Counted from the first letter of the stretch, positions 28,331-51,436 are shown. The stretch is DNA of 51,436 nucleotides from Alphaproteobacteria bacterium (GCA_017618595.1 JAFZTZ010000032.1:1-51436); one strand, 5' to 3'. The notes: generated by a model from the sequence alone, not told the origin. Numbers and translations are program-made.

Positions 28331-28789
28331 ATGAGAACAGAATACGGCAGAAGTTTAATTGAATTGGTTGGTGTGTTGGCCATAACCGGTGTTATGACGG
28401 CAAGTGCAATCGCACTATATAATTCCATTCGGCATAATCAGCAAAATACTATTGCCGCCGCAACATTGCGCGAAGTCGCCCAGAAATCAAATTTGCTGAT
28501 GGGAATGCGTGGCGATTACACCGGGATATCTGTTGAATATTTGATTAAAAGCGGGGTTTTGAAAACAGATGCGGCGCCAATTGGCAGAACCTGGTCGGTG
28601 GATCCGGGGTCAATTGATTTGGCAACATTTGAAATTAAATTGCATGGGCTGACGCATGGGGAATGTGATTTCTTTGCGGCGGCATTGCCGGCATGGGCCG
28701 AGGCAATGATAGTTAATGGCATACCATCCACAGAATATGTGCAATGTATTTCCGCACCAGAAAATGATATAACTTTCATCGCAAGGTAA
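28331..28789 (+). CDS. Type IV pilin-like protein (prepilin-type N-terminus, C-terminal disulfide pair)
   Basis: Leader MRTEYG followed by RSLIELVGVLAITGVMTASAIALY, with Glu at +5. Two C-terminal Cys (GECDFF...YVQCISAP) match a pilin D-region. 152 aa. RBS GGGGGGA. It starts 18 nt after the dnaX stop. Confidence 0.7.
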   Translation: MRTEYGRSLIELVGVLAITGVMTASAIALYNSIRHNQQNTIAAATLREVAQKSNLLMGMRGDYTGISVEYLIKSGVLKTDAAPIGRTWSVDPGSIDLATFEIKLHGLTHGECDFFAAALPAWAEAMIVNGIPSTEYVQCISAPENDITFIAR

Positions 28790-28791
28790 TA

Positions 28792-29466
28792 ATGAAGAAC
28801 AAAATTTTATCTTTGTTGTGTGTGTTGTTGGTGGCGTGTGCACAATATAAAAGTCCTGAACGTTCCACATGGCCGACATACCTGCACGGCGTCAGTTTTA
28901 CAGACATGAGTGAAAGCGCAAGAATTGCCAAGAAACCAATATATCTTGGTGCGGGTGGCCGTACGGTTGTTGATGCGGTTGGAAACAGACCCGAATTAGA
29001 TTATGGTAATAAATCACAAAACGAAGCGGCGGCTAGTGTTGGGTATATGTCAGAATTAGAATATAAATTATACGATGCATTGCGCCGCCCAGGCGTATCA
29101 GTTCAGCGTGCCGGCACAGATGTTGTTATTATATTGGTGCGCGACGCGATTATGGAACTGAACGCACCAGAAATATCGGCTGGGGGGGATGAAAACCTTG
29201 GCGATATTGTGGATATTTTAAAGAAATATGATGCAACATTTATTGAAATTGCGGGCTATACAGATTCTATGCGCGATTCAACCGCGGCGCACGCGTTATC
29301 ATTGGATATGGCAGAACGTGTTGCGGTGTATATGGCGCAACACAAGATAAATCAGTCGCGTATGTTCGTTGTTGGACGCGGTGCGGCCCGTCCAATTGCC
29401 GCCCAAGATGAATGGGGGCGCCTGACCAATCGGCGCGTAGAAATAAGAATAACACCGGTGCGGTAA
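28792..29466 (+). CDS. OmpA/MotB-domain lipoprotein
   Basis: Lipobox LLVAC. C-terminal OmpA-like domain IEIAGYTDSMRDSTAAHALSLDMAERVAVYM...GRGAARPIA...NRRVEIRI. It starts 2 nt after the pilin-like gene. Confidence 0.8.
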   Translation: MKNKILSLLCVLLVACAQYKSPERSTWPTYLHGVSFTDMSESARIAKKPIYLGAGGRTVVDAVGNRPELDYGNKSQNEAAASVGYMSELEYKLYDALRRPGVSVQRAGTDVVIILVRDAIMELNAPEISAGGDENLGDIVDILKKYDATFIEIAGYTDSMRDSTAAHALSLDMAERVAVYMAQHKINQSRMFVVGRGAARPIAAQDEWGRLTNRRVEIRITPVR

Positions 29467-31841: not shown

Positions 31842-32459
31842 CTACCATGTTGGTGCATGGTCGCCTTCTTTGACGATTGGTTGTTCATCTTCCCATACCG
31901 ACAACCCAGTTTTTACATCACTTAATGTCAATTGCAGGTAATATTCAACACGTGTATCCACGGACGAGAACCATCCAGATTGTAATTTCAAATTGCGTTG
32001 AATCATTTTACCAGTTAGCGACATATTTGGTGCAACCAATGTTCCGGTGCCCGCAATTGTGGACGCATCGTATTCGGCATTGCCGCGGGTATTACGCACC
32101 GCGTGCGTTGTTTCATCTTCGGCAGATTTATTGTTTCTGAATCCTGTGGTAACCTGGGCACGACCAGAATTTACTAATGTCTTGCGAATCTTTTTAATCA
32201 GGATATCTGTATCAAAACGTTGCATAGTATCGTTTTGAATTTCGCCAATTGCGATAACCGGATTTTTAATACGCGCAAATGCGCCGCTGGCCAACATAGA
32301 ATTGGTCATTTTTTCGGCGGTTGCGGTCCAGTCACGATATTCCAGTTCCATAACATTTTGCATTTCTGCGACTTCTTTGGAATTGTCCAGGTCAACAACC
32401 GTTGTTTCCCCGCAACCGCAAAGAACGGCGCATAATGCGATTGGTAATAATTTCTTCAT
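31842..32459 (-). CDS. LpoB/YcfM-like lipoprotein (COG3417-type)
   Basis: Lipobox VLCGC. YRDWTATAEKMTNSMLASG...VIAIGEIQNDT...IRKTLVNSG...EYYLQLTLSDVKTGLSVWE parallels the E. coli LpoB layout (YDW...M...ML, N-x-T, L-x-L-x-D-x-x-TGE-x-x-W). Confidence 0.6.
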   Translation of the reverse strand: MKKLLPIALCAVLCGCGETTVVDLDNSKEVAEMQNVMELEYRDWTATAEKMTNSMLASGAFARIKNPVIAIGEIQNDTMQRFDTDILIKKIRKTLVNSGRAQVTTGFRNNKSAEDETTHAVRNTRGNAEYDASTIAGTGTLVAPNMSLTGKMIQRNLKLQSGWFSSVDTRVEYYLQLTLSDVKTGLSVWEDEQPIVKEGDHAPTW

Positions 32460-32470
32460 ATTTTCCCCCT

Positions 32471-33700
32471 TTATTTAAGTTTCATTTGTTTTATATCGTA
32501 TTTATTTGGTGTGGTGCGAACATATACCAAATAATTTCCATCCGTTCCAATAGATATCTGTTTTATAACATTACCATTTGAACGCAATTCTATCAAGCCA
32601 CTTTTGGTAATAGGTGCACGCATCACAGATATTGTTTTGGGTAATGTTGCCCATGTGCGCACTTCGGCACTATTGGTGAATTCAGAATAAATTGTAGACA
32701 TTAGACCAAAGAGTGGCGCCGCGTCAGAATGTGAATTATAAAGTGATGATTGTAATACAACACGTGATGCCGCAGATGTAAATGCGCGCAGCGCATCATT
32801 GGTGCGATACTCACTATATTCTGTTATAAACATGGCATCAACATCGGCCAATAATTCTGCGCCGTCAAATTTGACATATGATTCCAGAAATTGTGGTTCA
32901 GAAATCGCAACTGTAACCATTGTTGTCCCATTACCAGATGCGACTGGTAAAGTTATTCTTTTTTCGGTTAATTTTGGTGCAAAACCATCTTCGATAAAAA
33001 CCCAAACGGTATTTTGTGGCCTTTGTTTTGATTCGGCCAATTTTAAATCACGTGCAATGAAACTGTTGTTTGGCATCATACCATTTGCACGATTCAGATA
33101 TGTTTTCGCATCTGCAAAATCGCCGTTATTCAAAAAGTATATGCCTGATAAATACATCAATGCCGGATTCATAATATCACGATATGCCACCCATTGTTCA
33201 TTTTTTAATGTTTTGGCAATTTCACTATTGGATATCTTGGTTTGATTTGATTCAATCAGTTCTTGGTATGCACGCGACATATCTTGTTGGCGCGCATATG
33301 ATTGGTTTATTATCACGCGCGCATCATTCCAACGTGCATCAGAAATGGCCGCCCACAACTGATAGTACGAAACAAACAAAGAATCCATCATATATGGTCG
33401 ATAATCGTTCGCATTTGCCCCCAGAGTTAGTGTTGTTGCTTCGCGCAGTAAATCGCCGCCAGTAGTGCTTAAATTGCGTTTATTAAATGTTTCATATGCG
33501 TTATCGGCCGCCGATATGTCATCATTATGGAATAGGGCATCCGCCGTCAATAATAAATCCAGGTTATTTTTATCTTGGAATTCGGTATCGGGGCTGGTCG
33601 TCATATAATTATTGCGAACATCGTCAAGGTGCGATTCAACGGTCGCGCTGCATCCGCATAACACAAACGCAATGGTCAAAAAAAACGATACTTTACGCAT
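32471..33700 (-). CDS. Lipoprotein of unknown function (TPR-like N-terminal half)
   Basis: Lipobox FVLCGC. 409 aa. It starts 3 nt after the upstream coupling-protein gene and ends 11 nt before the LpoB-like gene. I recall a resemblance to the lipoproteins that accompany LpoB-like genes (COG3014), but this is unverified. Confidence 0.45.
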   Translation of the reverse strand: MRKVSFFLTIAFVLCGCSATVESHLDDVRNNYMTTSPDTEFQDKNNLDLLLTADALFHNDDISAADNAYETFNKRNLSTTGGDLLREATTLTLGANANDYRPYMMDSLFVSYYQLWAAISDARWNDARVIINQSYARQQDMSRAYQELIESNQTKISNSEIAKTLKNEQWVAYRDIMNPALMYLSGIYFLNNGDFADAKTYLNRANGMMPNNSFIARDLKLAESKQRPQNTVWVFIEDGFAPKLTEKRITLPVASGNGTTMVTVAISEPQFLESYVKFDGAELLADVDAMFITEYSEYRTNDALRAFTSAASRVVLQSSLYNSHSDAAPLFGLMSTIYSEFTNSAEVRTWATLPKTISVMRAPITKSGLIELRSNGNVIKQISIGTDGNYLVYVRTTPNKYDIKQMKLK

Positions 33701-33703
33701 AAT

Positions 33704-35962
33704 TTATAATGTTACCGGTGTCAAATCTTTTAATTCATTTTTCTGTGGGTTATAGTACCGCGGTATGCCGGCATATTCCAATGTTGCGTGGTGCAACGGT
33801 ATAAGGAACTCTGGCAACGGCGAAGACCGTCCCATCTTGATATATTCCGCCATTTTTGGATCGCTAAATGCCATGCGCATTTCTGCCTTGATTGGACGAT
33901 GATAATATCCTTCGTACAGAACGACAGCTTCGGCCGGTTTGCCACCTACGGTTGTTTTTAATTTCATTAAATCAAATTCACTAAATACCGGTTCTTCGGT
34001 TTTTTCTTTTGTTTCTGTTTCTTTGCCATCTGGGCCTTTGGTCTTTTTCTTTTCAAACTTGATTTTTGGTGGAATCATTTTGGCAAAACGCGTTGCGGTA
34101 TCGGTTTCATTTTGACGGAACACAATCTTTGCCGCGGTCGTAGACAGAATTGTTGATGCGGCGTCTGGACCATACTTTTCTTGAATCTGGTGCAAGTCCT
34201 GACCAATGAACAGGTATGATATCTTTTGACTACGACCGACGTCGGGCCCTTGGATAACGGCCTGCATCTTTTGCATTTTCGGCATTTCATCAAGCAAGAA
34301 TAACACCGGATACGGCCCCATTTTTTCGCCGCTGCGTCCAACCGCCCCTGGTGGATTAGCCAGCAAGAAATTAGACATCGTTTCAATAAACATAGATGAA
34401 ATCGGGCTTAACGCCTTGGCGTCAACAACATTAACAGACAGGTATACTGTTACCGGTTTCATTTTGCCATCACGTGGGTCAATCATTCCACGCATATCGC
34501 AGAAATGAAAATCTGAATGACTTGTTCTGTTACGGACGGCGGCGTTACGGAATATACCCAAACCAGTCAAAATTGTTGAAATAATAGATCCGCGTTCGGT
34601 TGATGGTGTGTTGGCAAGTTTTGTTAATTCTGCGATGGCACGGTTTGAATATGCAAATGAACGGCTTTCATTAACCGCACCTTCCAGCCAGTCTTTCATT
34701 GGATCCGCCATCATAACGGTCTGATCGCCTTGTTTTTGACGTTCTGCCAAATCTTGGGCGACGGCAATTTGTGCCTCGGTAATCCAATCAAGCATCATGG
34801 AAAAAGATGCCTCTTTACCAAGCCACGCCTGTGGGATATTTGCCCATGTTCCGATGTGAACATAATTCATGGCGTTTAATTCACCGTTGCGAATAAGGCC
34901 AATTGCCGCAAACGCATTTGGGTCATTTATCATTGAAAAGTAATAGTCCGATAAAACCGCGCCATCGTCCGCATCAAATGTACCAGATTGCAGCCGACCA
35001 TAGAAATAATCATCGGCCTTGGCGCGTTCTATTTTTGACACAATAAATTGCACAAACCCGGCCAGACCAGCACGACCTGCTTGAGTCCAGTGCGGGTCGG
35101 CACTGCTGCCGACGGCATCGGGGACCAAAACATCACAGATATAGTCGACATACAATTCACGTTGTTCGGTACTAAACGGAATGTGCCCTGGTGACAACGG
35201 ATTCCACGATGGATAATAAATGCCCTTTTCTGGTTCGTCTTGTCCCGCCCAGTTCATAATGAACACCGGCCCAACCTTTTCGGAACGATAACCACTAGAT
35301 GCCGAGTCAATTTCAGGTTTCGGGTCGTTTATAATCATTGAAACATCAGGGCATTCAAAAATCGTTGGCAACACGATACCCTGGGTTTTACCAGTCCCGG
35401 GGGGCGCCAAACACAAAACAGATGTCGTTTTTGGTAATTTTAATGGTTTTTTCTTAAAATACCCAAGCAACAATATGTTTCCATCAAATAGTCCCATTTC
35501 TTTGACATCTTTTTCGGTTGCTTCGCGCCCGGAACGTTTATCAAATTCATCCTTGCCGTTGGGATTAAATTCCTTGGTTAATGTGCTGTCTGTTAATATG
35601 AAAAATGCAATAGCCGGTAAAAATGGTACGATGCACGGAATGTCCGGATGCATAACGCAACGCCAAATCCAATACGGAATTTCCGCAACCACCGACAGCC
35701 CCGCCGATGATAACACATTGTTTAAATAAATCTTCATCCAAACCGCCGTTGCGGGTGACCAACCATACCGCCAAATATGTTCAATAATAAACGATATGCC
35801 AAATACGACCGCACACACCAACCACACCGCAATGGTCCACCGCAATATCCAAAAGGTTTGCGCCATTGGGGCCTGTTCGTGTTCCTTGTAAGAAGTGGAT
35901 TTGAAAATATTCAAACCCTTACTATCTTTACCCACAGATAAAATCTTGAACTTTTCTGCCAT
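33704..35962 (-). CDS. Type IV secretion coupling protein, VirD4/TraG family ATPase
   Basis: 752 aa. N-terminal TM segments (FWILRWTIAVWLVCAVVFGISFII; IVPFLPAIAFFILT). Walker A LAPPGTGKTQGIVLPT, Walker B VLFLLDEMPKMQKM, and LFIGQDLHQIQEKYG. I chose the ATG at 35962 (MAEKFKIL). Confidence 0.8.
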   Translation of the reverse strand: MAEKFKILSVGKDSKGLNIFKSTSYKEHEQAPMAQTFWILRWTIAVWLVCAVVFGISFIIEHIWRYGWSPATAVWMKIYLNNVLSSAGLSVVAEIPYWIWRCVMHPDIPCIVPFLPAIAFFILTDSTLTKEFNPNGKDEFDKRSGREATEKDVKEMGLFDGNILLLGYFKKKPLKLPKTTSVLCLAPPGTGKTQGIVLPTIFECPDVSMIINDPKPEIDSASSGYRSEKVGPVFIMNWAGQDEPEKGIYYPSWNPLSPGHIPFSTEQRELYVDYICDVLVPDAVGSSADPHWTQAGRAGLAGFVQFIVSKIERAKADDYFYGRLQSGTFDADDGAVLSDYYFSMINDPNAFAAIGLIRNGELNAMNYVHIGTWANIPQAWLGKEASFSMMLDWITEAQIAVAQDLAERQKQGDQTVMMADPMKDWLEGAVNESRSFAYSNRAIAELTKLANTPSTERGSIISTILTGLGIFRNAAVRNRTSHSDFHFCDMRGMIDPRDGKMKPVTVYLSVNVVDAKALSPISSMFIETMSNFLLANPPGAVGRSGEKMGPYPVLFLLDEMPKMQKMQAVIQGPDVGRSQKISYLFIGQDLHQIQEKYGPDAASTILSTTAAKIVFRQNETDTATRFAKMIPPKIKFEKKKTKGPDGKETETKEKTEEPVFSEFDLMKLKTTVGGKPAEAVVLYEGYYHRPIKAEMRMAFSDPKMAEYIKMGRSSPLPEFLIPLHHATLEYAGIPRYYNPQKNELKDLTPVTL

Positions 35963-36019
35963 CGTGTTATGATTATACCAGAAAAAACAAAATTTATAAA
36001 GCAAGGAAATAAGATTTTA

Positions 36020-43458: not shown

Positions 43459-44790
43459 ATGATGAAAATAACAATTGCCGGACGGCCGAATACAGGAAAA
43501 TCAACATTGTTTAACGCATTGACGGGGACGCGCGATGCGCTGGTTCATGACAGACCGGGTGTGACCCGTGATACGATATACGGGACATTGGTTGGACACC
43601 CAGAATGCCAGGTTCGTGATACCGCAGGTTTGGAAAAAGCGCGTGCGGGAATCGCGGCGGATTCTACGGTTGCGGCCATAGATGCCATTTCTACAGCCGA
43701 TGCGATTCTGTTTGTTGTTGATGGTCGGGTCGGTCTTATTCCCGAAGATATGGATTGGGCGCGGACGGTACGCCGTAAAACACGTGCGCCGGTATTGTTA
43801 TTGGTTAACAAATCGGAATCTGGACGGCGTATGGCCGATATCCACGAATTTTATAAATTGGGATTCGGGGAACCGGTGTTAATTTCGGCGGAACATAAAA
43901 CCGGGTTCGATTCTATATTTGAATTCTTGGAAGGTATTACCCCATCATCCACCAAAAATAGTGAACCCGTTGTTGAAAAACGTATGAAAATCGCGGTTCT
44001 GGGGCAACCAAATGTTGGTAAATCAACGTTGGTGAATCGCGTAATCGGTGAAAATCGTCAAATTGTCAAAGATGAACCCGGGGTCACACGTGATACGGTC
44101 AAAATACCAGTAAAATTTTACGGCCGCGATATTTTGCTGATGGATACCGCGGGGTTACGTCGGAAATCAAATGTTCGCGATGATGTCGAAACATTGTCTG
44201 CATTAAAATCTTTGGATGCCATAGAAAAGGCAGATGTTGTTATTTTGGTGGTTGATGCTACGCGTGATATTGAAAACCAGGCGCTTGGTATTGCCGCGCG
44301 TGTATATGATGCGGGCAAGATTTTGTGTGTCGCATTAAATAAATGGGATTTGGTAGAAGCCACCGAACGTGATGAAAAATTGTTAAAGTTGAAACACCAC
44401 TTTACAAATTCTTTCCACCAGATAATAAAACCAATGATACTTGCCATATCGGCGGAAACCGGAACCGGTGTTCAAAATATGTTCAAGCGCATTTATGAAC
44501 AATGGGATATTTCAAATGCAAATGCCCCAACCAGTTTGATAAACAAAATCATTGGTGAATTGGTTGAATCGCGTCAACCACCAATGTCACGTTTGAAACG
44601 GCCAATGCGTATCAAATTTGCATCACAGACGGGTCGTCATCCAATGCGCATAACAATAAATGTTGGTGGTGCATCTGATATTCCAGAATCATACACACGG
44701 TATCTGCGTCGTGGAATTGCAACGGCATTGAAATGGGAACATTTGCCCATAACGATAGAATATAAAAAATCTGAAAATCCGTTTGATTAA
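43459..44790 (+). CDS. der: Ribosome-associated GTPase Der/EngA
   Basis: Two G domains (GRPNTGKSTLFN...DTAG...NKSE and GQPNVGKSTLVN...DTAG...NKWD) plus a KH-like C-terminus. Confidence 0.95.
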   Translation: MMKITIAGRPNTGKSTLFNALTGTRDALVHDRPGVTRDTIYGTLVGHPECQVRDTAGLEKARAGIAADSTVAAIDAISTADAILFVVDGRVGLIPEDMDWARTVRRKTRAPVLLLVNKSESGRRMADIHEFYKLGFGEPVLISAEHKTGFDSIFEFLEGITPSSTKNSEPVVEKRMKIAVLGQPNVGKSTLVNRVIGENRQIVKDEPGVTRDTVKIPVKFYGRDILLMDTAGLRRKSNVRDDVETLSALKSLDAIEKADVVILVVDATRDIENQALGIAARVYDAGKILCVALNKWDLVEATERDEKLLKLKHHFTNSFHQIIKPMILAISAETGTGVQNMFKRIYEQWDISNANAPTSLINKIIGELVESRQPPMSRLKRPMRIKFASQTGRHPMRITINVGGASDIPESYTRYLRRGIATALKWEHLPITIEYKKSENPFD

Positions 44791-45137
44791 TTCAATGTTG
44801 TTAAAAACATTGGAAATGCATTTTCTTCGTCATCAACATTTTCAGACGATTCAGCAGATTCTGCGCCATCTGTTGTCGCGGTATCTGCGGATGGAACATC
44901 AACCGGTGTTTTATCCTTTGGATCACGCGTTGAATCAATCTTGCTTTGTTCTTCGTTGACGATACGACCATAATGTTCGGCCGCCTGAAGCAAGCGTTCG
45001 CGTTCAATTTCGTCCGTTGCAACGCGTGCCTGGTCCATGTACTGTTTGCGTTTTTGACGCCATTTGTGACAACGTTGAATCATCATACCAACAGAAGATT
45101 GGTTTCGTGCAGTTTGCTGATTTTTTTTGTTTAACAT
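44787..45137 (-). CDS. DUF4167-like basic/acidic protein
   Basis: YMDQARVATDEIERERLLQAAEHYGRIV resembles the alphaproteobacterial DUF4167 core, followed by an acidic C-terminal tail. I chose the ATG at 45137. Its stop overlaps the der stop (TTAA). Confidence 0.5.
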   Translation of the reverse strand: MLNKKNQQTARNQSSVGMMIQRCHKWRQKRKQYMDQARVATDEIERERLLQAAEHYGRIVNEEQSKIDSTRDPKDKTPVDVPSADTATTDGAESAESSENVDDEENAFPMFLTTLN

Positions 45138-45284
45138 TTTAATTCTTTTGTTTTGGAAATAATTTCTGGGTTCACGGCATTTTGCCAAACCACCCCTATC
45201 AAACGAAACTAATGGTAAAACATCTTAAAACCAATTGCAATATTTTTTTTCAATTGCTATGCTTTTATATACATGGGGGGAATT

Positions 45285-46652
45285 GTGCGTAATCAACGTG
45301 GAAATTTTTTGCTTCAGGCGCTACTTGCACTGACGTTGGTGTTCGTTTTTATACCCTTTTTTGCGCGGCGTTTGTCGATGAATGATATTGGTGCGCAAAT
45401 GTATGCGACCACGCGTCAGGTTGATGTTACAAGAACAGCAGCAAAAATTTATATCCAAGAAAATGCGGATTCTCTGTCGTATGATACAACGATTTTATCG
45501 GGAAATAATTTGGTGGATAAACTGGAACCATATGGATTGCCACTTGGGTTTATTGCGCGAACCCCAATGGGCCAAGATATTAGTTTAATTATAAATAAAA
45601 ATGATGTTGAAATATCTGCGTTTATCCGGCTAAGTGGTGGGAAATTAAATACGGTGCAACGCGCAGAAATTGCGCGCAGAATAGGGTTCTTTGCAATATA
45701 TAACGCAAATGACCCAGATGGCGACATAGACATTGGTGTTCAACTTGGCGAAATGTATTCTGATGTTGTGAAAAGAAATGAAAAAAATGCTGATTTTGCG
45801 GGGTTCTTGACTGATTTGGATATGGGTGGTTTTAAATTTGATAATGCGGCAAATATATTGGCAATGCGTGCGGTGTCTGATACCGGTGAATTTACAACAT
45901 TGTCGGTTACCGGAAATGAAGTCGGGCGTAAAGAAAGAAATAATATAAAGACGATAAATACGAACAAGGTTGTTTTTCAAACAGGTGCCGGGGACTCCGC
46001 ATTGTCATTGACGCGTGGAACATTGAAAACAGATTCTTTGGTGGCGCGCACAATTTCAAGATATGGTGATACGGGAAATCTGATTGCTGTGGATGCTGCA
46101 TTCGATAGTTTGGATATGACAACCGGACATACCGGATTTTTGGGACCGGAAAAATGGAACATCGGGGGCAGTATTATCAGCAGTCGTATTACATTTAATG
46201 TTGAAAGATTGGATGTTTCGTCATTTATTAACGCAAGCCGTGGACAAGATGTATTCATTGATTCGGACACATTAACATACAGCACCGCCAGCGGTATAGA
46301 AACAGAATACATATATTCGTCGAACATAACATTGCGCGACCAAACATCTGATAGTTTATCGCGCGGTGGTGATGGTGCAATTATTTTGGACATCAGACCT
46401 GCGGGTGCATCTGTGTTGCCAGACGTTCTTGTTGAAACAATAGACAATGATGGATTTTCTATATTGGCCAAACCCACCGATGATAGTACATCAACAGTTA
46501 AATGCAGTTCTATTATTGAAGGTTTGGGTAATAAATATAATCAAAAATCTTTGGCGCAATACATTATATGCCAATATGTTTATTGGCAACGTTTGGAACA
46601 TAGAATAAATATGAAACAATGTTTAATAGAGGGCGGAAATGATTGTAAATAA
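45285..46652 (+). CDS. Large pilin-like protein A (prepilin-type N-terminus, beta-rich body, Cys-containing tail)
   Basis: The GTG at 45285 follows RBS GGGGGG and gives the leader (M)RNQRG, then NFLLQALLALTLVFVFIPFF. An alternative ATG is at 45273. Shared motif TDLDMGGFKFDN starts at nt 45816. The last 50 aa contain four Cys. Confidence 0.6.
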   Translation: MRNQRGNFLLQALLALTLVFVFIPFFARRLSMNDIGAQMYATTRQVDVTRTAAKIYIQENADSLSYDTTILSGNNLVDKLEPYGLPLGFIARTPMGQDISLIINKNDVEISAFIRLSGGKLNTVQRAEIARRIGFFAIYNANDPDGDIDIGVQLGEMYSDVVKRNEKNADFAGFLTDLDMGGFKFDNAANILAMRAVSDTGEFTTLSVTGNEVGRKERNNIKTINTNKVVFQTGAGDSALSLTRGTLKTDSLVARTISRYGDTGNLIAVDAAFDSLDMTTGHTGFLGPEKWNIGGSIISSRITFNVERLDVSSFINASRGQDVFIDSDTLTYSTASGIETEYIYSSNITLRDQTSDSLSRGGDGAIILDIRPAGASVLPDVLVETIDNDGFSILAKPTDDSTSTVKCSSIIEGLGNKYNQKSLAQYIICQYVYWQRLEHRINMKQCLIEGGNDCK

Positions 46653-47844
46653 ATTTAGAATTTTTTCGCCCAGGTATCGTTCGGAAATTACCGCACAGTC
46701 CGGGGGCGGTGTTGTAGAGGTTTTATTGGCATTCATAATCATTGCCGTTGCCGCACCGTTTACATATTCTATGATTACCGAAGCAACGCATAATATGCAT
46801 AATATGGCAATCGCAAATGACATAATTAGTTTGCGTAGCGGTGTATTAAACTTTATTCGTATAAATCAAGATTTATGGCCTGATGTTGCGCAGATAAAAT
46901 TGTCCGAAGAAGAATTGGCCGAATTTTCTGATGTAATTGCATCTGGGTTCATAGATAAATATTCTGTTCGTGGCGGCATAATCATAGATGCGTATTTGGC
47001 GTTTGATTTTAATTTGCCGACAAAACGTGTTGCACAGATTGCAAAAAATATTGGTGGTGATGCGGCGTTGGTTGGCCCCGATGGCATTGCATACGGAGAT
47101 TCGTGGGCGGTTACTGCACCAGATTTTCAAGAAGGCAATTTGGTTTACAAAATAACGCGTAATTTATCAGACATTGATATGGCACGATTCTTGCATCGTG
47201 GGTCATCGGGTGATGATAACCTGAATATGATGGAACGTGATTTAAATATGGGCGGACACGATGTCTATAACGTTGGTGGAATTGTTGCGAAATCATTACA
47301 GGTCCGCAATTTAGACGCGACATTTGTAAATTCAGATACTGTTGATGCAAAAAATGTTTATTTTTCATCGGGCGCAAATGTTAATGGTGATAATGTTAAA
47401 TTTGGTGTGTTGCGTGTTTCTGGTGATATAAACGGTTTCCGTAATATAGAGGCCCAGCGTATAAATAATTCCGCATATACGGTTAATGGTCGTATAATCA
47501 CAGATCGTGCAACGATAAATAAAAGCGTAAATGTTGCACATGACCTTACATTAAAATCAACAACAGTGCGAACAATAAGTGGTTTCGCCGGTATGACGGT
47601 TGGTTCCGTTTATGCGCCATATATAAACACCACAGAAATAACATTTTATGAAAATTTTGGGCTAACGGTGTCGGGTGAATTATTGTTGTCGACAACCGCA
47701 CCAATAAAATTGGGTTCGTGGAGTTTCCCATCCACAACCCCACCATCATTCAAGGTATTAAATTTAACACGTGCGTCAATTCCGGCAATGCCAGAATCCG
47801 ATGAGTTTAACAGTATATTAGAAAGCGGTTGGAAAACAAAATGA
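46639..47844 (+). CDS. Large pilin-like protein B (paralog of A and C)
   Basis: N-terminus ...AQSGGGVVEVLLAFIIIAVAAPF. The motif FLHRGSSGDDNLNMMERDLNMGGHDVYNVGGIVA (LNMGG core at nt 47242) is followed by N/V/S/T/G-rich beta-type sequence. RBS AGAGGGCGG. 14-nt overlap with A. Confidence 0.6.
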   Translation: MIVNKFRIFSPRYRSEITAQSGGGVVEVLLAFIIIAVAAPFTYSMITEATHNMHNMAIANDIISLRSGVLNFIRINQDLWPDVAQIKLSEEELAEFSDVIASGFIDKYSVRGGIIIDAYLAFDFNLPTKRVAQIAKNIGGDAALVGPDGIAYGDSWAVTAPDFQEGNLVYKITRNLSDIDMARFLHRGSSGDDNLNMMERDLNMGGHDVYNVGGIVAKSLQVRNLDATFVNSDTVDAKNVYFSSGANVNGDNVKFGVLRVSGDINGFRNIEAQRINNSAYTVNGRIITDRATINKSVNVAHDLTLKSTTVRTISGFAGMTVGSVYAPYINTTEITFYENFGLTVSGELLLSTTAPIKLGSWSFPSTTPPSFKVLNLTRASIPAMPESDEFNSILESGWKTK

Positions 47845-49154
47845 AATACAGAAATCGCATCTTTTCAAATTTATTTTCAAATCGTGGAACGGTGCTGATA
47901 GAATTTTTGCTGACCATTGGTTTGGCGGCGACGCTAATGCCATTTATATACAGTTATCAACAACGCGCAATTATGCGTGCAGAAAATCTAAAAGTTGCAC
48001 GCAATATGCAAAAAATACAAACGGTATTGGAACGTTATATTGTTGAAAACAAAGATAGTATGCTGACCACCGTTGGTCGCACAATATTTAGGTTGGAATT
48101 GGCCGATTTAGTTGCATATGGATTAGATGAAGAATTTGTAAAAGCATCCAAAGACAAATACCAATTGCGAATTTTGAAATCTGTGGATGCTAGCGATCAG
48201 GCCGCACTTCAGGGAATCATAGTGTTTGATGATGCCGACATTACGCCAATTCGCACGCGTGAAATCGTGCAAATGGGGGATGATAAAATTGGATTTATTG
48301 ACGGAACCAAGGGATACGGTGGGTTCGGAACATGGCGCACCGATATGGTCGATTTAGATATTGAAAATAAATCAGGCATTATTCAAACAACCGCAATAAA
48401 TCGTGATAATTCATTATATTTGTGGCGTGTGCCGTCTGAATCTGCGGCAGATGCAACGATGTTGTCGGCATTGAATATTGGAAATCGTGATATTAAAAAT
48501 GCAACATTTGTAAATGCCGCCGGGTTATCATTGGGCGAATTGTTGGATACACAAAAAATATCAACAAACGATTTGATATTTACAAACCGTACAACCATAG
48601 ATTCAACATTTAATACGCCAATTGCTGTTGTGTCGGGTGCGATGTCGGGCGATTCAAAAAATATCTCGGTATCCGGGACATTAAATCTTGCCGACATGGC
48701 CAAGGTTTCAAATCTTACCGTTGATAATTTATGGGTTAATAACTTATCACTTGGCAGCCTATCCACCCCCAGCGACAGCGTTTCAACATTGCGCGCGACG
48801 GGCTCGCTGGATATGACCGAAGGCCGCGTAAGTGCGCTGTATGTAACGGTTGGTTTTACTGGGTCTTTGACACCGCGTCTTGTTGTTAAGAATAAAATTG
48901 TAGATTCAACAAATTCAAATTATTTTTGGGATTTGCAAAAAATGACTGCCAATTTTGCAGATATAAATTCACCGACTTTATCAGATATGGCACCCAAGAT
49001 ATTGCGCAAAGAATCTGTTTCGGGGTCTGTGGTGACACGAATATTTAGTAGTGTTGTCGCAAACAAGAATGCAACAATGGCGGACTTTTTGAATGCGATA
49101 CGTGATATTCAGCAAAATGTGCGTGGGAAATATCGCATGTTGAAATTGGAATAA
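47841..49154 (+). CDS. Large pilin-like protein C (paralog of A and B)
   Basis: MKYRNRIFSNLFSNRG followed by TVLIEFLLTIGLAATLMPF, with Glu at +5. Motif YLWRVPSESAADATMLSALNIGNRDIKNATFVNA (LNIGN core at nt 48471). ATGA overlap with B. Confidence 0.6.
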   Translation: MKYRNRIFSNLFSNRGTVLIEFLLTIGLAATLMPFIYSYQQRAIMRAENLKVARNMQKIQTVLERYIVENKDSMLTTVGRTIFRLELADLVAYGLDEEFVKASKDKYQLRILKSVDASDQAALQGIIVFDDADITPIRTREIVQMGDDKIGFIDGTKGYGGFGTWRTDMVDLDIENKSGIIQTTAINRDNSLYLWRVPSESAADATMLSALNIGNRDIKNATFVNAAGLSLGELLDTQKISTNDLIFTNRTTIDSTFNTPIAVVSGAMSGDSKNISVSGTLNLADMAKVSNLTVDNLWVNNLSLGSLSTPSDSVSTLRATGSLDMTEGRVSALYVTVGFTGSLTPRLVVKNKIVDSTNSNYFWDLQKMTANFADINSPTLSDMAPKILRKESVSGSVVTRIFSSVVANKNATMADFLNAIRDIQQNVRGKYRMLKLE

Positions 49155-49188
49155 TTTATGGTATAACAATTGTAAAACAGGACATAAT

Positions 49189-49707
49189 ATGAAAGTAAAA
49201 TGTGACGTTTGCAAAACAGAATATACATTAACCGATGTGCCAAATGGACCGGTGCGCTGCGCCGTCTGTGGCAATGTATGGACCCCACAACGTGCGGGGC
49301 GCCGTGCCAGTATAATGGTTTTTGTCGCGTCGTTGTGTGCATTGCTGGCGGCAACGGTGTTTGCGGTCGCGGTTATCATAACATCGCGCCGTGATGATCC
49401 AAATAAAAGACCGTTGGTCGCCACAATTACCAAGGTTGAAACAATAACTGATGCGGACGCACCAAAAATTACGGTTAATGGAACGGTAACAAATCGTTCA
49501 GATGATATTTATGGACTGCCAGATTTGGTAATTGTTCTGTATGATGCGTCGGGTTCACCAATTGCGCGCCAGAAATTTATGCCATCGGCAACATTGTTGG
49601 ACGCGGGGCAGTCGGTTGAATTTTCGCACACGATATCAAATGTTGCACCTGGCGTAAAACGTGTCGCGGTTGAACTATTGGAATCAGAGCAGGGAGGGGC
49701 GAAATAA
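49189..49707 (+). CDS. MJ0042-type zinc-ribbon membrane protein with a DUF3426-like C-terminal domain
   Basis: MKVKCDVCKTEYTL...VRCAVCGNVW carries two CxxC pairs. A TM segment (IMVFVASLCALLAATVFAVAVII) follows, then the C-terminal beta domain VNGTVTNRSDDIYGLPDLVIVLYDASG. Confidence 0.7.
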   Translation: MKVKCDVCKTEYTLTDVPNGPVRCAVCGNVWTPQRAGRRASIMVFVASLCALLAATVFAVAVIITSRRDDPNKRPLVATITKVETITDADAPKITVNGTVTNRSDDIYGLPDLVIVLYDASGSPIARQKFMPSATLLDAGQSVEFSHTISNVAPGVKRVAVELLESEQGGAK

Positions 49708-50168
49708 TGAAAAAATTAATTGCACTGTTTGCATGTGTATTACCAATGTGTGCGGCGTTTGGCGATAATCCGCCACCACCGCAACCACGGGTCAGTATTT
49801 TTTCAACAACAACAGATTGGTCGGCGCTGACCGGATTATCGTTGCGTCAATTTATTGGAAATTTCGAATGGAATAATTCTGATGTGAAACAGGGGCTGGT
49901 GTTATATTACCTGGATGCCTTTCCATGCTATGGCGAAGCAGACAGCGTTCGTGTATGGTTGGGACCAAATAACAAAAGCGAAGGTAAATTGCGTCTTGTA
50001 TGTGTGCATGCACCCAAAAGTATAAGTTTTGCATGGCGTAATGCGACGCGTGATGCGGACCAGGCACAAAGCAAGGGTATATTGACATGCCCGGTTAGTG
50101 GCGAATACGAATTAAAAATTGATATATCCAAATGCGCAACCGGTCCAGAATGGAAGGAATATAAATAA
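49707..50168 (+). CDS. Small secreted protein with four Cys in the mature part
   Basis: Signal peptide MKKLIALFACVLPMCAAFG followed by a PPPPQP linker. 1-nt overlap with the preceding gene (TAATG). Confidence 0.5.
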   Translation: MKKLIALFACVLPMCAAFGDNPPPPQPRVSIFSTTTDWSALTGLSLRQFIGNFEWNNSDVKQGLVLYYLDAFPCYGEADSVRVWLGPNNKSEGKLRLVCVHAPKSISFAWRNATRDADQAQSKGILTCPVSGEYELKIDISKCATGPEWKEYK

Positions 50169-50171
50169 CCC

Positions 50172-51125
50172 ATGACCGACACGCGTGATTTTGTTGTTGA
50201 TTTGGAATCCGCTGGGGTGCGACTGGATAAATTTTTGGTCGGCGTATTGCCCGAATTTTCACGCAGCGAGATTCAGCATTTTACAATTTCCCGTAACGGA
50301 AAAAACGCAAAGGTTTCTGACAAGGTCAAACCAGACGATAAAATTACGGTCACAATTCCCGATGCGCCAACCGATGTTGCCACCGATAACATATCTGACG
50401 ATATCGATTTGGATATTTTATACGAAGACGATGATATTATCGTTGTGAATAAACCGCGTGGGGTGGTTATGTACCCATCGGCGGGCAATAAAACCGGAAC
50501 ATTTGTTCAAAACATATTGTCGCATACACACCTGTCGGCGTTGGGGGGCGAAACTCGGCCGGGTGTTGTACATCGTTTGGACAAGGATACAAGTGGCGTT
50601 ATGGTTTTTGCAAAATCTGACGCGGCATATCGCGAATTGGTCAAGGTTTTTTCTACCCATAACTTGACGCGGAAATATGTCGCGTTTGTTTGGGGTGTGC
50701 CGAATTGGACGGGGGCGGATATTACTGGCAATATTGCGCGTTCTTCGCGGAACAGACAAAAAATGACCATGGTCAAGACCGGCGGCAAACCCGCACACAC
50801 CATTGTGGACGTTTTGGATGTGTGGACGCGTACCGGCGTATCGGAATTTCGTTGTACATTGATGACCGGGCGAACCCATCAAATCAGGGTGCATTTGTCC
50901 GCGCATGGTTTCCCGGTTCTGTGCGATCCAATTTATGGTCGGGCTGCCACTCGGTTGGGGTCGGTTCGTAATCCAGACCTGCTAGATTTCTTGAAAGAAC
51001 ATACCGGCCAGATGTTGCACGCCCAGATTTTAGAATTTGCGCATCCAATAACCGGCAAACCGATGAAATTTAAAACAGATTTGCCCGATGATATGTTGGA
51101 ACTGCGTGCGATTTTAGACGAGTAA
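50172..51125 (+). CDS. rluD: 23S rRNA pseudouridine synthase RluD (RluA family)
   Basis: N-terminal S4-like domain (RLDKFLVGVLPEFSRSEIQ), catalytic motif HRLDKDTSGVMVFAKS, and TGRTHQIRVHL. Confidence 0.92.
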   Translation: MTDTRDFVVDLESAGVRLDKFLVGVLPEFSRSEIQHFTISRNGKNAKVSDKVKPDDKITVTIPDAPTDVATDNISDDIDLDILYEDDDIIVVNKPRGVVMYPSAGNKTGTFVQNILSHTHLSALGGETRPGVVHRLDKDTSGVMVFAKSDAAYRELVKVFSTHNLTRKYVAFVWGVPNWTGADITGNIARSSRNRQKMTMVKTGGKPAHTIVDVLDVWTRTGVSEFRCTLMTGRTHQIRVHLSAHGFPVLCDPIYGRAATRLGSVRNPDLLDFLKEHTGQMLHAQILEFAHPITGKPMKFKTDLPDDMLELRAILDE

Positions 51126-51223
51126 TTATTTTTATAAAATTTTGGTGGCACGACCGACCACTTTTTTCTTTTTTTTTATTTGGTTGTATGATATAATTAA
51201 TTGATACCAAAAGGGGACCGAGA

Positions 51224-51436
51224 ATGAATATTCTGATAAAATATAGTAGTTTTTTGGCGGTTTTGTGCATGGTTGACGGCGCAAATGCGGCGATACGTGC
51301 GGGCGCACCACGAACAACATCGGCGGCATCGCCGCGTGTTTCGTTGGCGATTAAACCGACCCAGGGCGCTATGCAGGCACTTCGTATTCCAACGATGACA
51401 AAAACCGTAACAACGACTACGGCAACGACGACCGCA
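51224..51436 (+). CDS. Secreted Thr/Ala-rich protein, 5' fragment (runs off the window)
   Basis: Manual translation from the ATG at 51224 (RBS AAGGGGA): MNILIKYSSFLAVLCMVDGANAAIRAGAPRTTSAASPRVSLAIKPTQGAMQALRIPTMTKTVTTTTATTTA... It is open to the window end and absent from the ORF track. Confidence 0.5.
   Translation, partial: MNILIKYSSFLAVLCMVDGANAAIRAGAPRTTSAASPRVSLAIKPTQGAMQALRIPTMTKTVTTTTATTTA

Follow-up and report, generated by a model that had tools for sequence, protein, structure and literature searches.

What do three large, consecutive genes with pilin-like N-termini encode in an alphaproteobacterial genome, and what could their products build together? The genes, here named A, B, and C, lie near the end of a 51,436-nucleotide (nt) stretch from Alphaproteobacteria bacterium (GCA_017618595.1, JAFZTZ010000032.1:1-51436). 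This stretch, hereafter the window, makes up an entire contig (51,436 bp) of a metagenome-assembled genome from NCBI, with the locus tags J5613_01740 to J5613_01760. Two smaller genes, D and E, follow downstream. We found that A, B, and C are relatives of the pilus tip adhesin PilV, and we consider it probable, with a rough probability of 0.6, that they are anciently duplicated, fixed PilV-class large minor pilins forming a minor-pilin tip complex. The three proteins probably form the sticky pilus tip by which a partner-dependent bacterium holds other cells.

Three divergent paralogs related to PilV

All three genes are located on the plus strand and encode PilV-like large pilin-like proteins. 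Gene A spans 45273-46652 if read from an ATG or 45285-46652 if read from a GTG (459 or 455 amino acids [aa]), gene B spans 46639-47844 (401 aa), and gene C spans 47841-49154 (437 aa). Direct reading of the junctions revealed a 14-nt overlap between A and B and an ATGA overlap between B and C, in agreement with the first-pass annotation, which was made from the sequence alone and had described three large, consecutive, overlapping genes. Most A orthologs have a length of 455 aa, matching the GTG start at 45285. The NCBI model of A (MBO4745775.1) has only 424 aa and fits a start at Met36 of the open reading frame (ORF; window 45273-45380). With this start, the entire hydrophobic N-terminus would be cut off, and the pilin-like signal is thus hidden in the deposited annotation. 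The copies of A, B, and C are all annotated as hypothetical, except for an IMG label "PilE" on some copies of C.

We compared the N-termini of 82 orthologs each of A, B, and C. A Gly residue at position -1, before the hydrophobic stretch, was present in every ortholog with an intact N-terminus. Position +5 was occupied by Glu in all C orthologs and in all intact B orthologs but one, and by Gln in all A orthologs; Gly together with Gln(+5) was found in all 69 distinct N-termini of A. Pro(+18) was invariant in the three proteins, and Arg was usual at position -2. In the window, the leader of A comprises 6-10 residues (Gly codon at 45300-45302, plus strand) and is followed by the mature N-terminus NFLLQ with the invariant Gln at +5. 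The leader of B comprises 22 residues (Gly22 codon at 46702-46704, plus strand) and is followed by a sequence with Glu at +5, while that of C comprises 16 residues (Gly16 codon at 47886-47888, plus strand) and precedes the mature N-terminus TVLIE with the invariant Glu at +5. When all ORFs in the six frames of the window were scanned for the class III signature pattern, only A, B, and C matched. The Gly and the buried acidic residue are kept at only about 50% overall identity, which argues for a class III signal rather than a plain anchor. The N-termini had been called prepilin-like before, with the conservation of Gly(-1) and of position +5 proposed as a check; both positions are conserved where a class III signal needs them.

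The leaders of B and C (46639-46704 and 47841-47888) additionally carry a common conserved motif, RIF(S), upstream of the predicted cleavage Gly. Conserved leader peptides are unusual, and this motif might be a recognition element.

Next to the N-termini, profile comparisons link the three proteins over longer regions. BLASTP aligned B and C with 24% identity over 261 residues (E 6e-6), and A and C over the N-terminal 60 residues only. Using profiles of 50-55 homologs each, hhalign paired B with C (probability 97.8%, E 7.5e-13, 364 columns), A with B (93.9%, E 1.5e-7, 282 columns), and A with C (77%, E 2e-5). Judged by these alignments, A, B, and C are old duplicates and distant paralogs. The motif L-[DN]-[MI]-G-[GN]-x-[KD]-x-x-N, whose positions are nt 45816, 47242, and 48471, is common to all three, and its part L-[DN]-[ML]-G-G is aligned across the three profiles. 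In A, the motif L-D-M-G-G-F-K-F-D-N (45816-45845, plus strand) is aligned with "LNMGGNDV" of PilV. The segment FLHRGSSGDDNLNMMERDLNMGGHDVYN of B (47188-47271, plus strand) corresponds to the PilV consensus YLYRKAVPGHPELNTMSTALNMGGNDV, and the segment YLWRVPSESAADATMLSALNIGNRDIKN of C (48417-48500, plus strand) contains the PilV-type motif. Upstream of the common motif, B and C have [FY]-L-[HW]-R...[NT]-M. Positions and order of these elements were as described in the first-pass annotation; the spacer in C, which had been given as 7-8 residues, has 9. A, B, and C are strongly divergent in their C-terminal halves, and four conserved Cys residues are found in that of A.

PilV is the tip adhesin of the type IVb "thin" pilus of IncI plasmids, and it has so far been studied as a device of plasmids and genomic islands for choosing conjugation partners. 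When the B profile was searched exhaustively against 1.84 billion representative proteins, only 186 hits were obtained, showing that the family is small. Distant members have 420 to >1,200 aa and keep both the N-terminus (RG, then xxxxE...P-[FM]-[IV]-Y) and the motif [FY]-L-[HY]-[RK]...N-x-M...L-x-M-G. One of the hits, protein P0453 (E 6.6e-9), scores above the gathering cut-off of the Pfam model Shufflon_N (PF04917; 31.7 vs. 27.5 bits, E 1.5e-7) and matches genes annotated as shufflon-system pilus tip adhesin PilV in 223 plasmid records. Two further distant members match PF04917 below the cut-off. The B protein of the window itself gave only weak matches to plasmids, and eight of these nine matches were pilV.

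The PilV profile used for direct comparison was built from four proteins encoded on Fukatsuia, Citrobacter, and Enterobacter plasmids. It was aligned by hhalign with C (95.5%, E 1.4e-8, 205 columns; 97.15% and E 4.7e-11 with the C alignment of 76 species), with B (94.9%, E 4.1e-8), and with A (72%, E 3.4e-5). The PilV consensus "NDYLYRKAVPGHPELNTMSTALNMGGNDV" corresponds to "ARFLHRGSSGDDNLNMMERDLNMGGHDV" of B. With Fukatsuia PilV as the query, tblastn directly recovered C from many species, in alignments that spanned 220-316 residues with E 1.5e-8 to 1e-4, and 2 of the 76 C orthologs match PF04917 directly (best E 2.9e-6). On this sequence evidence, A, B, and C are remote members of the PilV/Shufflon_N superfamily, and their branch has diverged beyond the reach of the Pfam model. 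The first-pass annotation had pointed to a resemblance to the constant region of shufflon/PilV adhesins and flagged it as unverified; the profiles, tblastn, P0453, and the C orthologs establish it as genuine homology. It had also stated that the arrangement could not be matched to a described system. This holds for the arrangement only: the proteins belong to a known superfamily and are not a new protein kind, and a chromosomal, triplicated, shufflon-less operon with one member lacking Glu at +5 (Glu5) is undescribed in searchable material.

Scans of A, B, C, and E against Pfam, NCBIfam, and PHROGs gave nothing usable, the only match being a sub-threshold one to Bactofilin in B (E 0.018). Among the distant family members, P0440 (E 0.0036) and P0450 (E 0.009) match the Pfam model N_methyl weakly.

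A fixed locus in a genome-reduced lineage

The remainder of the window is core genome, with mutS, pnp, infB, nusA, lptD, dnaX, lpxD, rpoH, der, and others. When one genome for each GTDB species was scanned, relatives of B were detected in 182 genomes, which originate from rumen and gut samples. Their lineage is the Candidatus Enterousia group of the order Rs-D84, which consists of uncultured gut and rumen alphaproteobacteria. The genomes of Rs-D84 are smaller than 1 Mb and encode no flagella and a very limited metabolism, and the bacteria are probably partner-dependent (PMC12306168).

The gene order, with a divergent DUF4167 gene followed by A, B, C, D, E, and rluD, was the same in 84 of the 84 loci whose contig reaches far enough. 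Thus, the five genes are conserved as a unit, as the first-pass annotation had proposed to check, with protein identities among the orthologs down to 47-58%. The locus occupies a fixed position between core genes, with dnaX or der upstream and rluD downstream, in 80 species. Each of A, B, and C has a 1:1 ortholog in every species examined. Conservation is even along their length, the N-terminal and C-terminal halves of the orthologs being equally well conserved: the mean pairwise identity per 40-residue block was 0.53-0.74, and only the final residue of B, with 0.34, was an exception. That the operon has been kept in about 80 sampled species of a proposed partner-dependent lineage with genomes below 1 Mb argues for an important function, probably in cell contact.

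A PilV-like locus raises the possibility of a shufflon, the DNA inversion system that switches PilV ends on plasmids. No sfx-type inverted repeats were found at 44700-51436, where only short repeats at chance level were present, and no Rci-type recombinase was found among the scanned ORFs of the window. A shufflon-like inversion system was therefore rejected, since there are no repeats beyond chance, no recombinase, and the C-terminal halves are conserved. The same two observations, no shufflon and conserved C-terminal halves among orthologs, make A, B, and C look like fixed, distinct components.

These data also bear on the proposal of the first-pass annotation that A, B, and C are three alternative adhesins. 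Each pilus would then carry A, B, or C at its tip, with three receptor specificities, as a hard-wired equivalent of a shufflon. Variants of PilV indeed determine recipient specificity by their different C-termini (PMC9045228), and A, B, and C do have strongly divergent C-terminal halves. However, the three genes occur 1:1 in every species examined, are translationally coupled, and are evenly conserved along their length. In addition, Glu5 is missing from A alone, a sign of different structural positions and not of interchangeable roles (PMC5207764). We consider alternative adhesins, a variant of the tip-complex reading, improbable; with 1:1 orthologs and C-terminal halves conserved as well as the N-terminal ones, the three proteins fit better as fixed parts of one complex.

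The synteny further speaks against a prophage or an integrated conjugative element, of which tail-fibre-like or PilV genes would be a remnant without a present cellular role. A VirD4-type coupling protein is encoded in the window, and the "LNMGGxNITNVG" region, which A, B, and C have in common with PilV (positions 185-237 of the B profile), is repeated six to seven times in a 900-1,500-aa protein (P0462, P0488). The C-terminus of this repeat protein matches the phage virion structural families phrog_35197 and phrog_10330, which suggests that the LNMGG motif is a module that also occurs in phage fibre-like proteins. In contrast, the operon is found at the same position between core genes in 80 species and shows purifying conservation, no integrase and no repeats were detected, and its GC content matches that of the rest of the window. 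A mobile-element origin was rejected on the basis of the synteny, and we assign this explanation a negligible chance.

In other, more distantly related contigs, two or three tandem PilV-like genes are followed by recO and are not accompanied by genes of the D or E type (L088:8588-12838, L090:731-3561, and L086:846-4665). The first of these contigs, L088, looks alphaproteobacterial, with a CcrM-like methyltransferase encoded nearby. All tandem members there retain Glu at +5.

Two further observations were made at the related loci. The contig CAVGNU010000002.1 (L046), labelled "Bacteroides fragilis isolate ... cleanbin", carries an Enterousia-type A-E locus with its flanks and is probably a mislabelled or contaminated bin. 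In 67 related loci, rluD is followed by a gene for a conserved Cys-rich secreted protein of 1,040-1,140 aa that matches no Pfam family and has hydrophobic segments close to its C-terminal end (for example, L001:14541-17669, L005:6641-9880, and L009:14608-17868). In the genome studied here, this position lies beyond the window end. The Cys-rich protein could be another surface component.

A putative pilus tip and its candidate pilin, without machinery genes nearby

If A, B, and C cap a pilus, which pilin would they cap? The first-pass annotation had reported no pilus machinery in the window. This was correct for the assembly ATPase, platform, prepilin peptidase, and secretin, but a type IV pilin gene at 28331-28789 (plus strand) had been missed. 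It encodes a 152-aa protein with a conserved Cys pair, which begins with MRTEYG followed by RSLIELVGVLAITG, the Gly thus preceding RSLIE. The window copy matches N_methyl only (E 0.039). Among its orthologs, 29 of 35 match PilS (PF08805; best E 2.3e-5) and 31 of 35 match N_methyl, and the profile of the family retrieved only type IV pilins from the PDB sequences, including TcpA (E 0.011). PilS is the type IVb major pilin of plasmid PilV systems. The gene is followed by those for an OmpA-family lipoprotein and skp (28331-29466). In the window, 17 kb separate it from A; in most relatives, it is found only about 2 kb upstream, accompanied by the genes for the OmpA-family lipoprotein, skp, and dnaX. 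By its sequence, the 152-aa protein is a candidate for the major subunit of the pilus that is proposed to be capped by A, B, and C.

Among the minor pilins of most type II secretion systems (T2SS) and type IV pili, only a single one is without Glu5; it is taken as the first subunit, there being no subunit above it to neutralise (PMC5207764). Guided by this and by the CofB trimer at the tip of another pilus (see below), the following course of assembly can be proposed. Each of A, B, and C would be inserted in the inner membrane via its hydrophobic N-terminal helix, and a prepilin peptidase encoded elsewhere would cleave after the invariant Gly. By packing together, the three helices would give rise to the initial layer of a three-start type IV filament. 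Protein A, the only one without Glu5 and with an invariant Gln instead, would be the first and tip-most subunit, beneath which B and C would dock via their Glu5. The A-B-C complex would prime polymerisation of the 152-aa pilin (28331-28789). The three distinct, individually conserved beta-rich C-terminal halves would be exposed at the tip, where they would make contact with a partner or host cell.

Structure prediction with AlphaFold2 (AF2) gave a low mean predicted local distance difference test (pLDDT) value for both C (59) and A (56). The N-terminal 150-185 residues reached pLDDT values of 70-88 and formed a long helix (residues 17-69 of C, 53 residues; residues 8-59 of A, 52 residues) followed by a small sheet. 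In a Foldseek search of PDB with the A model, the top three matches, well ahead of all others, were entries of PilW, a minor pilin of Clostridioides difficile (about 139 columns aligned with a probability of 0.97 and E 0.02-0.04). These entries are maltose-binding protein fusions, and since no other structure of maltose-binding protein was listed, the match is to the PilW part. The C profile had few marginal matches among PDB sequences, mostly to type IV pilins. With the PilV profile, no solved relative was detectable among PDB sequences, which explains the poor structural matches of A and C. The predicted pilin-like N-terminal fold of A and C is supportive but not decisive.

Several results weigh against a pilus tip complex. 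The heterotrimer, the tip position of A, and the roles of D and E are inferred only, and the subunit lacking Glu5 is encoded last in T2SS clusters but first, as A, in this operon. The AF2 models are unreliable at residues 189-350 of C and 156-378 of A (pLDDT <50; shallow alignments, with an effective number of sequences of about 2). Thus, the middle of both models does not give the shape of the proposed adhesive part. A Foldseek search of PDB with the C model retrieved nothing at E <0.3. The first-pass annotation had suggested checking the proteins against N_methyl and Shufflon_N, and no match at E <= 1 was obtained for A, B, and C of the window with N_methyl (PF07963), Shufflon_N, or NCBIfam pilin models (TIGR02532). 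The silence of the curated N-methylation models indicates that the signal is divergent. Finally, no prepilin peptidase, assembly ATPase, platform, or secretin is encoded in the 51-kb contig (whole genomes were not searched), and none of these four classes was found within 10 kb of the locus in 80 related species. The survey of Rs-D84 reports type IV pili for another lineage and mentions none for this order (PMC12306168). Likewise, when an entire type IVb pil operon of Fukatsuia served as the tblastn query, the window and 90 loci gave only matches to PilV and weak ones to PilS.

The strongest rival explanation starts from this absence. The lineage may have lost the type IV assembly machinery, with A, B, and C persisting as envelope proteins with uncleaved anchors, in the form of inner-membrane-tethered, periplasm-spanning or surface fibres that are possibly organised by D. 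Besides the lack of machinery genes in the window and in the flanks of 80 species and the silence of the survey on pili in Rs-D84, it is favored by the PilV-like triplets in distant contigs of other lineages, which are also located among housekeeping genes with no pil genes nearby. On the other hand, the clade-wide retention of Gly(-1) and the buried Glu(+5), which extends to the 152-aa pilin, would be needless for a plain anchor. The small pilin would have no obvious role without a filament, and the absence of machinery extends no further than the contig and the flanks that were searched. We therefore regard the loss of the machinery as unlikely, though as the alternative to be taken most seriously.

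A related, doubtful scenario keeps the filament and dispenses with the canonical machinery. Enterousia-type bacteria would have a pilin-based contact organelle without PilB/PilC/PilD-type proteins, in which A, B, C, and the small pilin are assembled by something else. This may be a minimal apparatus organised by D or a borrowed type IV secretion system, given the coupling protein in the window. The latter is a VirD4/TraG-type protein of 766 aa, encoded on the minus strand at 31842-36004 together with a 409-aa protein that matches no family and a lipoprotein of the LpoB family. The contig contains no further genes for type IV secretion.

Genes D and E and comparison with known systems

Are D and E part of the same apparatus as the proposed tip complex? 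Gene D (49189-49707, plus strand) encodes a 172-aa protein of ZitP architecture. It has a CxxC-x15-CxxC arrangement as a putative cytoplasmic zinc ribbon, with C5, C8, C24, C27, and W31 invariant in 73 sequences, followed by a hydrophobic segment at residues 42-64 as the single transmembrane (TM) segment and a periplasmic DUF3426/FxLYD domain. The matches to DUF3426 (30.4 bits vs. a cut-off of 27.7) and FxLYD (31.1 vs. 23) are above the cut-offs, while those of the zinc ribbon are just below them (Zn_ribbon_4, 24.5 vs. 30.3 bits; MJ0042_CXXC, 19.9 vs. 20.9; PF13717/PF13719, TIGR02098). The 153-aa product of gene E (49707-50168, plus strand) is a small secreted protein; it bears a signal peptide, four of its Cys residues are invariant, and it matches no family. 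The first-pass annotation had assigned D two CxxC pairs, one TM segment, and a DUF3426-like domain, here above the Pfam cut-off, and had described E as a secreted protein with four Cys residues; both descriptions are accurate.

Its second statement on these genes, that D and E are dedicated envelope partners, is not supported. The 34-nt spacer between C and D and the 1-nt overlap of D and E agree with the tight spacing it had noted, but it had left unmentioned that this spacing continues into the gene for an rluD-type pseudouridine synthase (50172-51125, plus strand), which begins after a gap of 3 nt past E. No terminator-like site and no notable repeat interrupts the A-E block, and A, B, C, D, E, and rluD are probably one transcription unit with rluD as the last gene. 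Since the unrelated rluD is equally tightly attached, the tight spacing cannot prove a functional tie of D and E to A, B, and C. The link is by synteny in a compact genome, and in distant relatives the triplet occurs with neither D nor E. It is just as conceivable that D is the general ZitP ortholog of the lineage and a mere neighbour of A, B, and C.

ZitP of Caulobacter crescentus has an architecture like that of D, with a zinc ribbon (putative in D) containing four zinc-binding Cys residues, a TM segment, and DUF3426. The DUF3426 domain of ZitP is needed for Tad pilus biogenesis in Caulobacter (PMC5182063, PMC5182065). Speculatively, the periplasmic DUF3426 domain would enable D to place or assist the apparatus, in the manner of ZitP and the Tad pilus of Caulobacter. 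The Trp after the second CxxC of D resembles W35, the PopZ-binding determinant of ZitP, a protein that binds PopZ and recruits factors for pilus biogenesis (PMC5182063, PMC5182065). In contrast to ZitP with 311 aa, D has 172 aa and a very short cytoplasmic linker, so the two are likened by architecture and not by orthology. The link to ZitP and an "IEF" motif in C also brought up Tad-type pseudopilins (TadE/TadF/TadG) as candidates for A, B, and C. They were rejected, as no TadE or TadG model matched and the homology to PilV accounts for the proteins.

CofB of the CFA/III pilus of enterotoxigenic Escherichia coli is a large type IVb minor pilin that forms a homotrimer at the tip, initiates assembly, and binds the small secreted protein CofJ (PMC6048534). 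CofB and TcpB, the latter from the toxin-coregulated pilus of Vibrio cholerae, combine a pilin domain with beta-rich C-terminal domains, and the trimer is located at the tip (PMC6048534, PMC5207764). Foldseek and the PDB sequence profile revealed no sequence or structural match of A or C to these proteins. In both systems, the homotrimer consists of one product that retains Glu5, whereas the operon studied here encodes three paralogs, one of them without Glu5. The three paralogs would replace both the CofB/TcpB-type homotrimer and the shuffled C-termini of PilV. The small secreted protein that binds the large minor pilin is encoded in the same operon, and E is likened to it by analogy only; speculatively, E would be a secreted partner of the tip, like CofJ or TcpF.

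The sets GspH-I-J-K and FimU-PilVWX resemble A-C in that several minor pilins are encoded together and one of them (GspK or PilX) lacks Glu5. They differ in that no homology was detected, A, B, and C are all large, and position +5 is Gln in A but a hydrophobic residue in GspK/PilX-type proteins. A very unlikely alternative to the pilus tip is a short T2SS-like pseudopilus in which A, B, C, and the 152-aa pilin act as a periplasmic piston exporting E or the Cys-rich protein that relatives encode after rluD. One large subunit without Glu5 is a GspK-like signature (PMC5207764), E is a small secreted protein of the same operon, and the secretion of a small protein from their own operon, such as TcpF or CofJ, is another task of type IVb minor pilins. 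Nevertheless, the homology found is to PilV adhesins, the window proteins match no GspH-K or T2SSG model, and no T2SS genes were seen.

As a fixed tip complex, the A-B-C set would be a natural test of the idea that a trimeric minor-pilin complex primes the filament and that the subunit without Glu5 comes first. If this is true, the three tip positions are filled by three different proteins and are hence experimentally distinguishable. The conserved chromosomal triplet extends the relatives of PilV to at least 182 species-level genomes of a metabolism-poor lineage thought to live off other cells. Because A, B, and C were kept through strong genome reduction, they are good candidates for its attachment apparatus. 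For annotation, the results provide a handle, as the Shufflon_N superfamily reaches well past what the Pfam model detects.

The closest comparison remains with PilV itself. PilV of IncI1 and IncI2 plasmids (R64, TP114) and PilV2 of PAPI-1 have, like A, B, and C, about 400-470 aa and a prepilin-type N-terminus. The N-terminal 200-240 or so residues are homologous, including YL[YHW]R...N-x-M...LNMGG-x-D-[VI], which is common to PilV and A-C, and the C-terminal part is beta-rich and contains Cys residues in both. The identity between A-C and PilV is only about 20-25%, and the window proteins score below the Pfam cut-off. PilV plasmids have a shufflon with switchable ends of one gene, whereas A, B, and C are three fixed paralogs. 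The gene for PilV belongs to a plasmid pil operon next to PilQ/R/S/U (as seen in the compared Fukatsuia plasmid), whereas A, B, and C belong to the chromosomal core genome. Finally, A, B, and C have Glu or Gln at +5, unlike the aligned PilV proteins, which have no Glu at this position.

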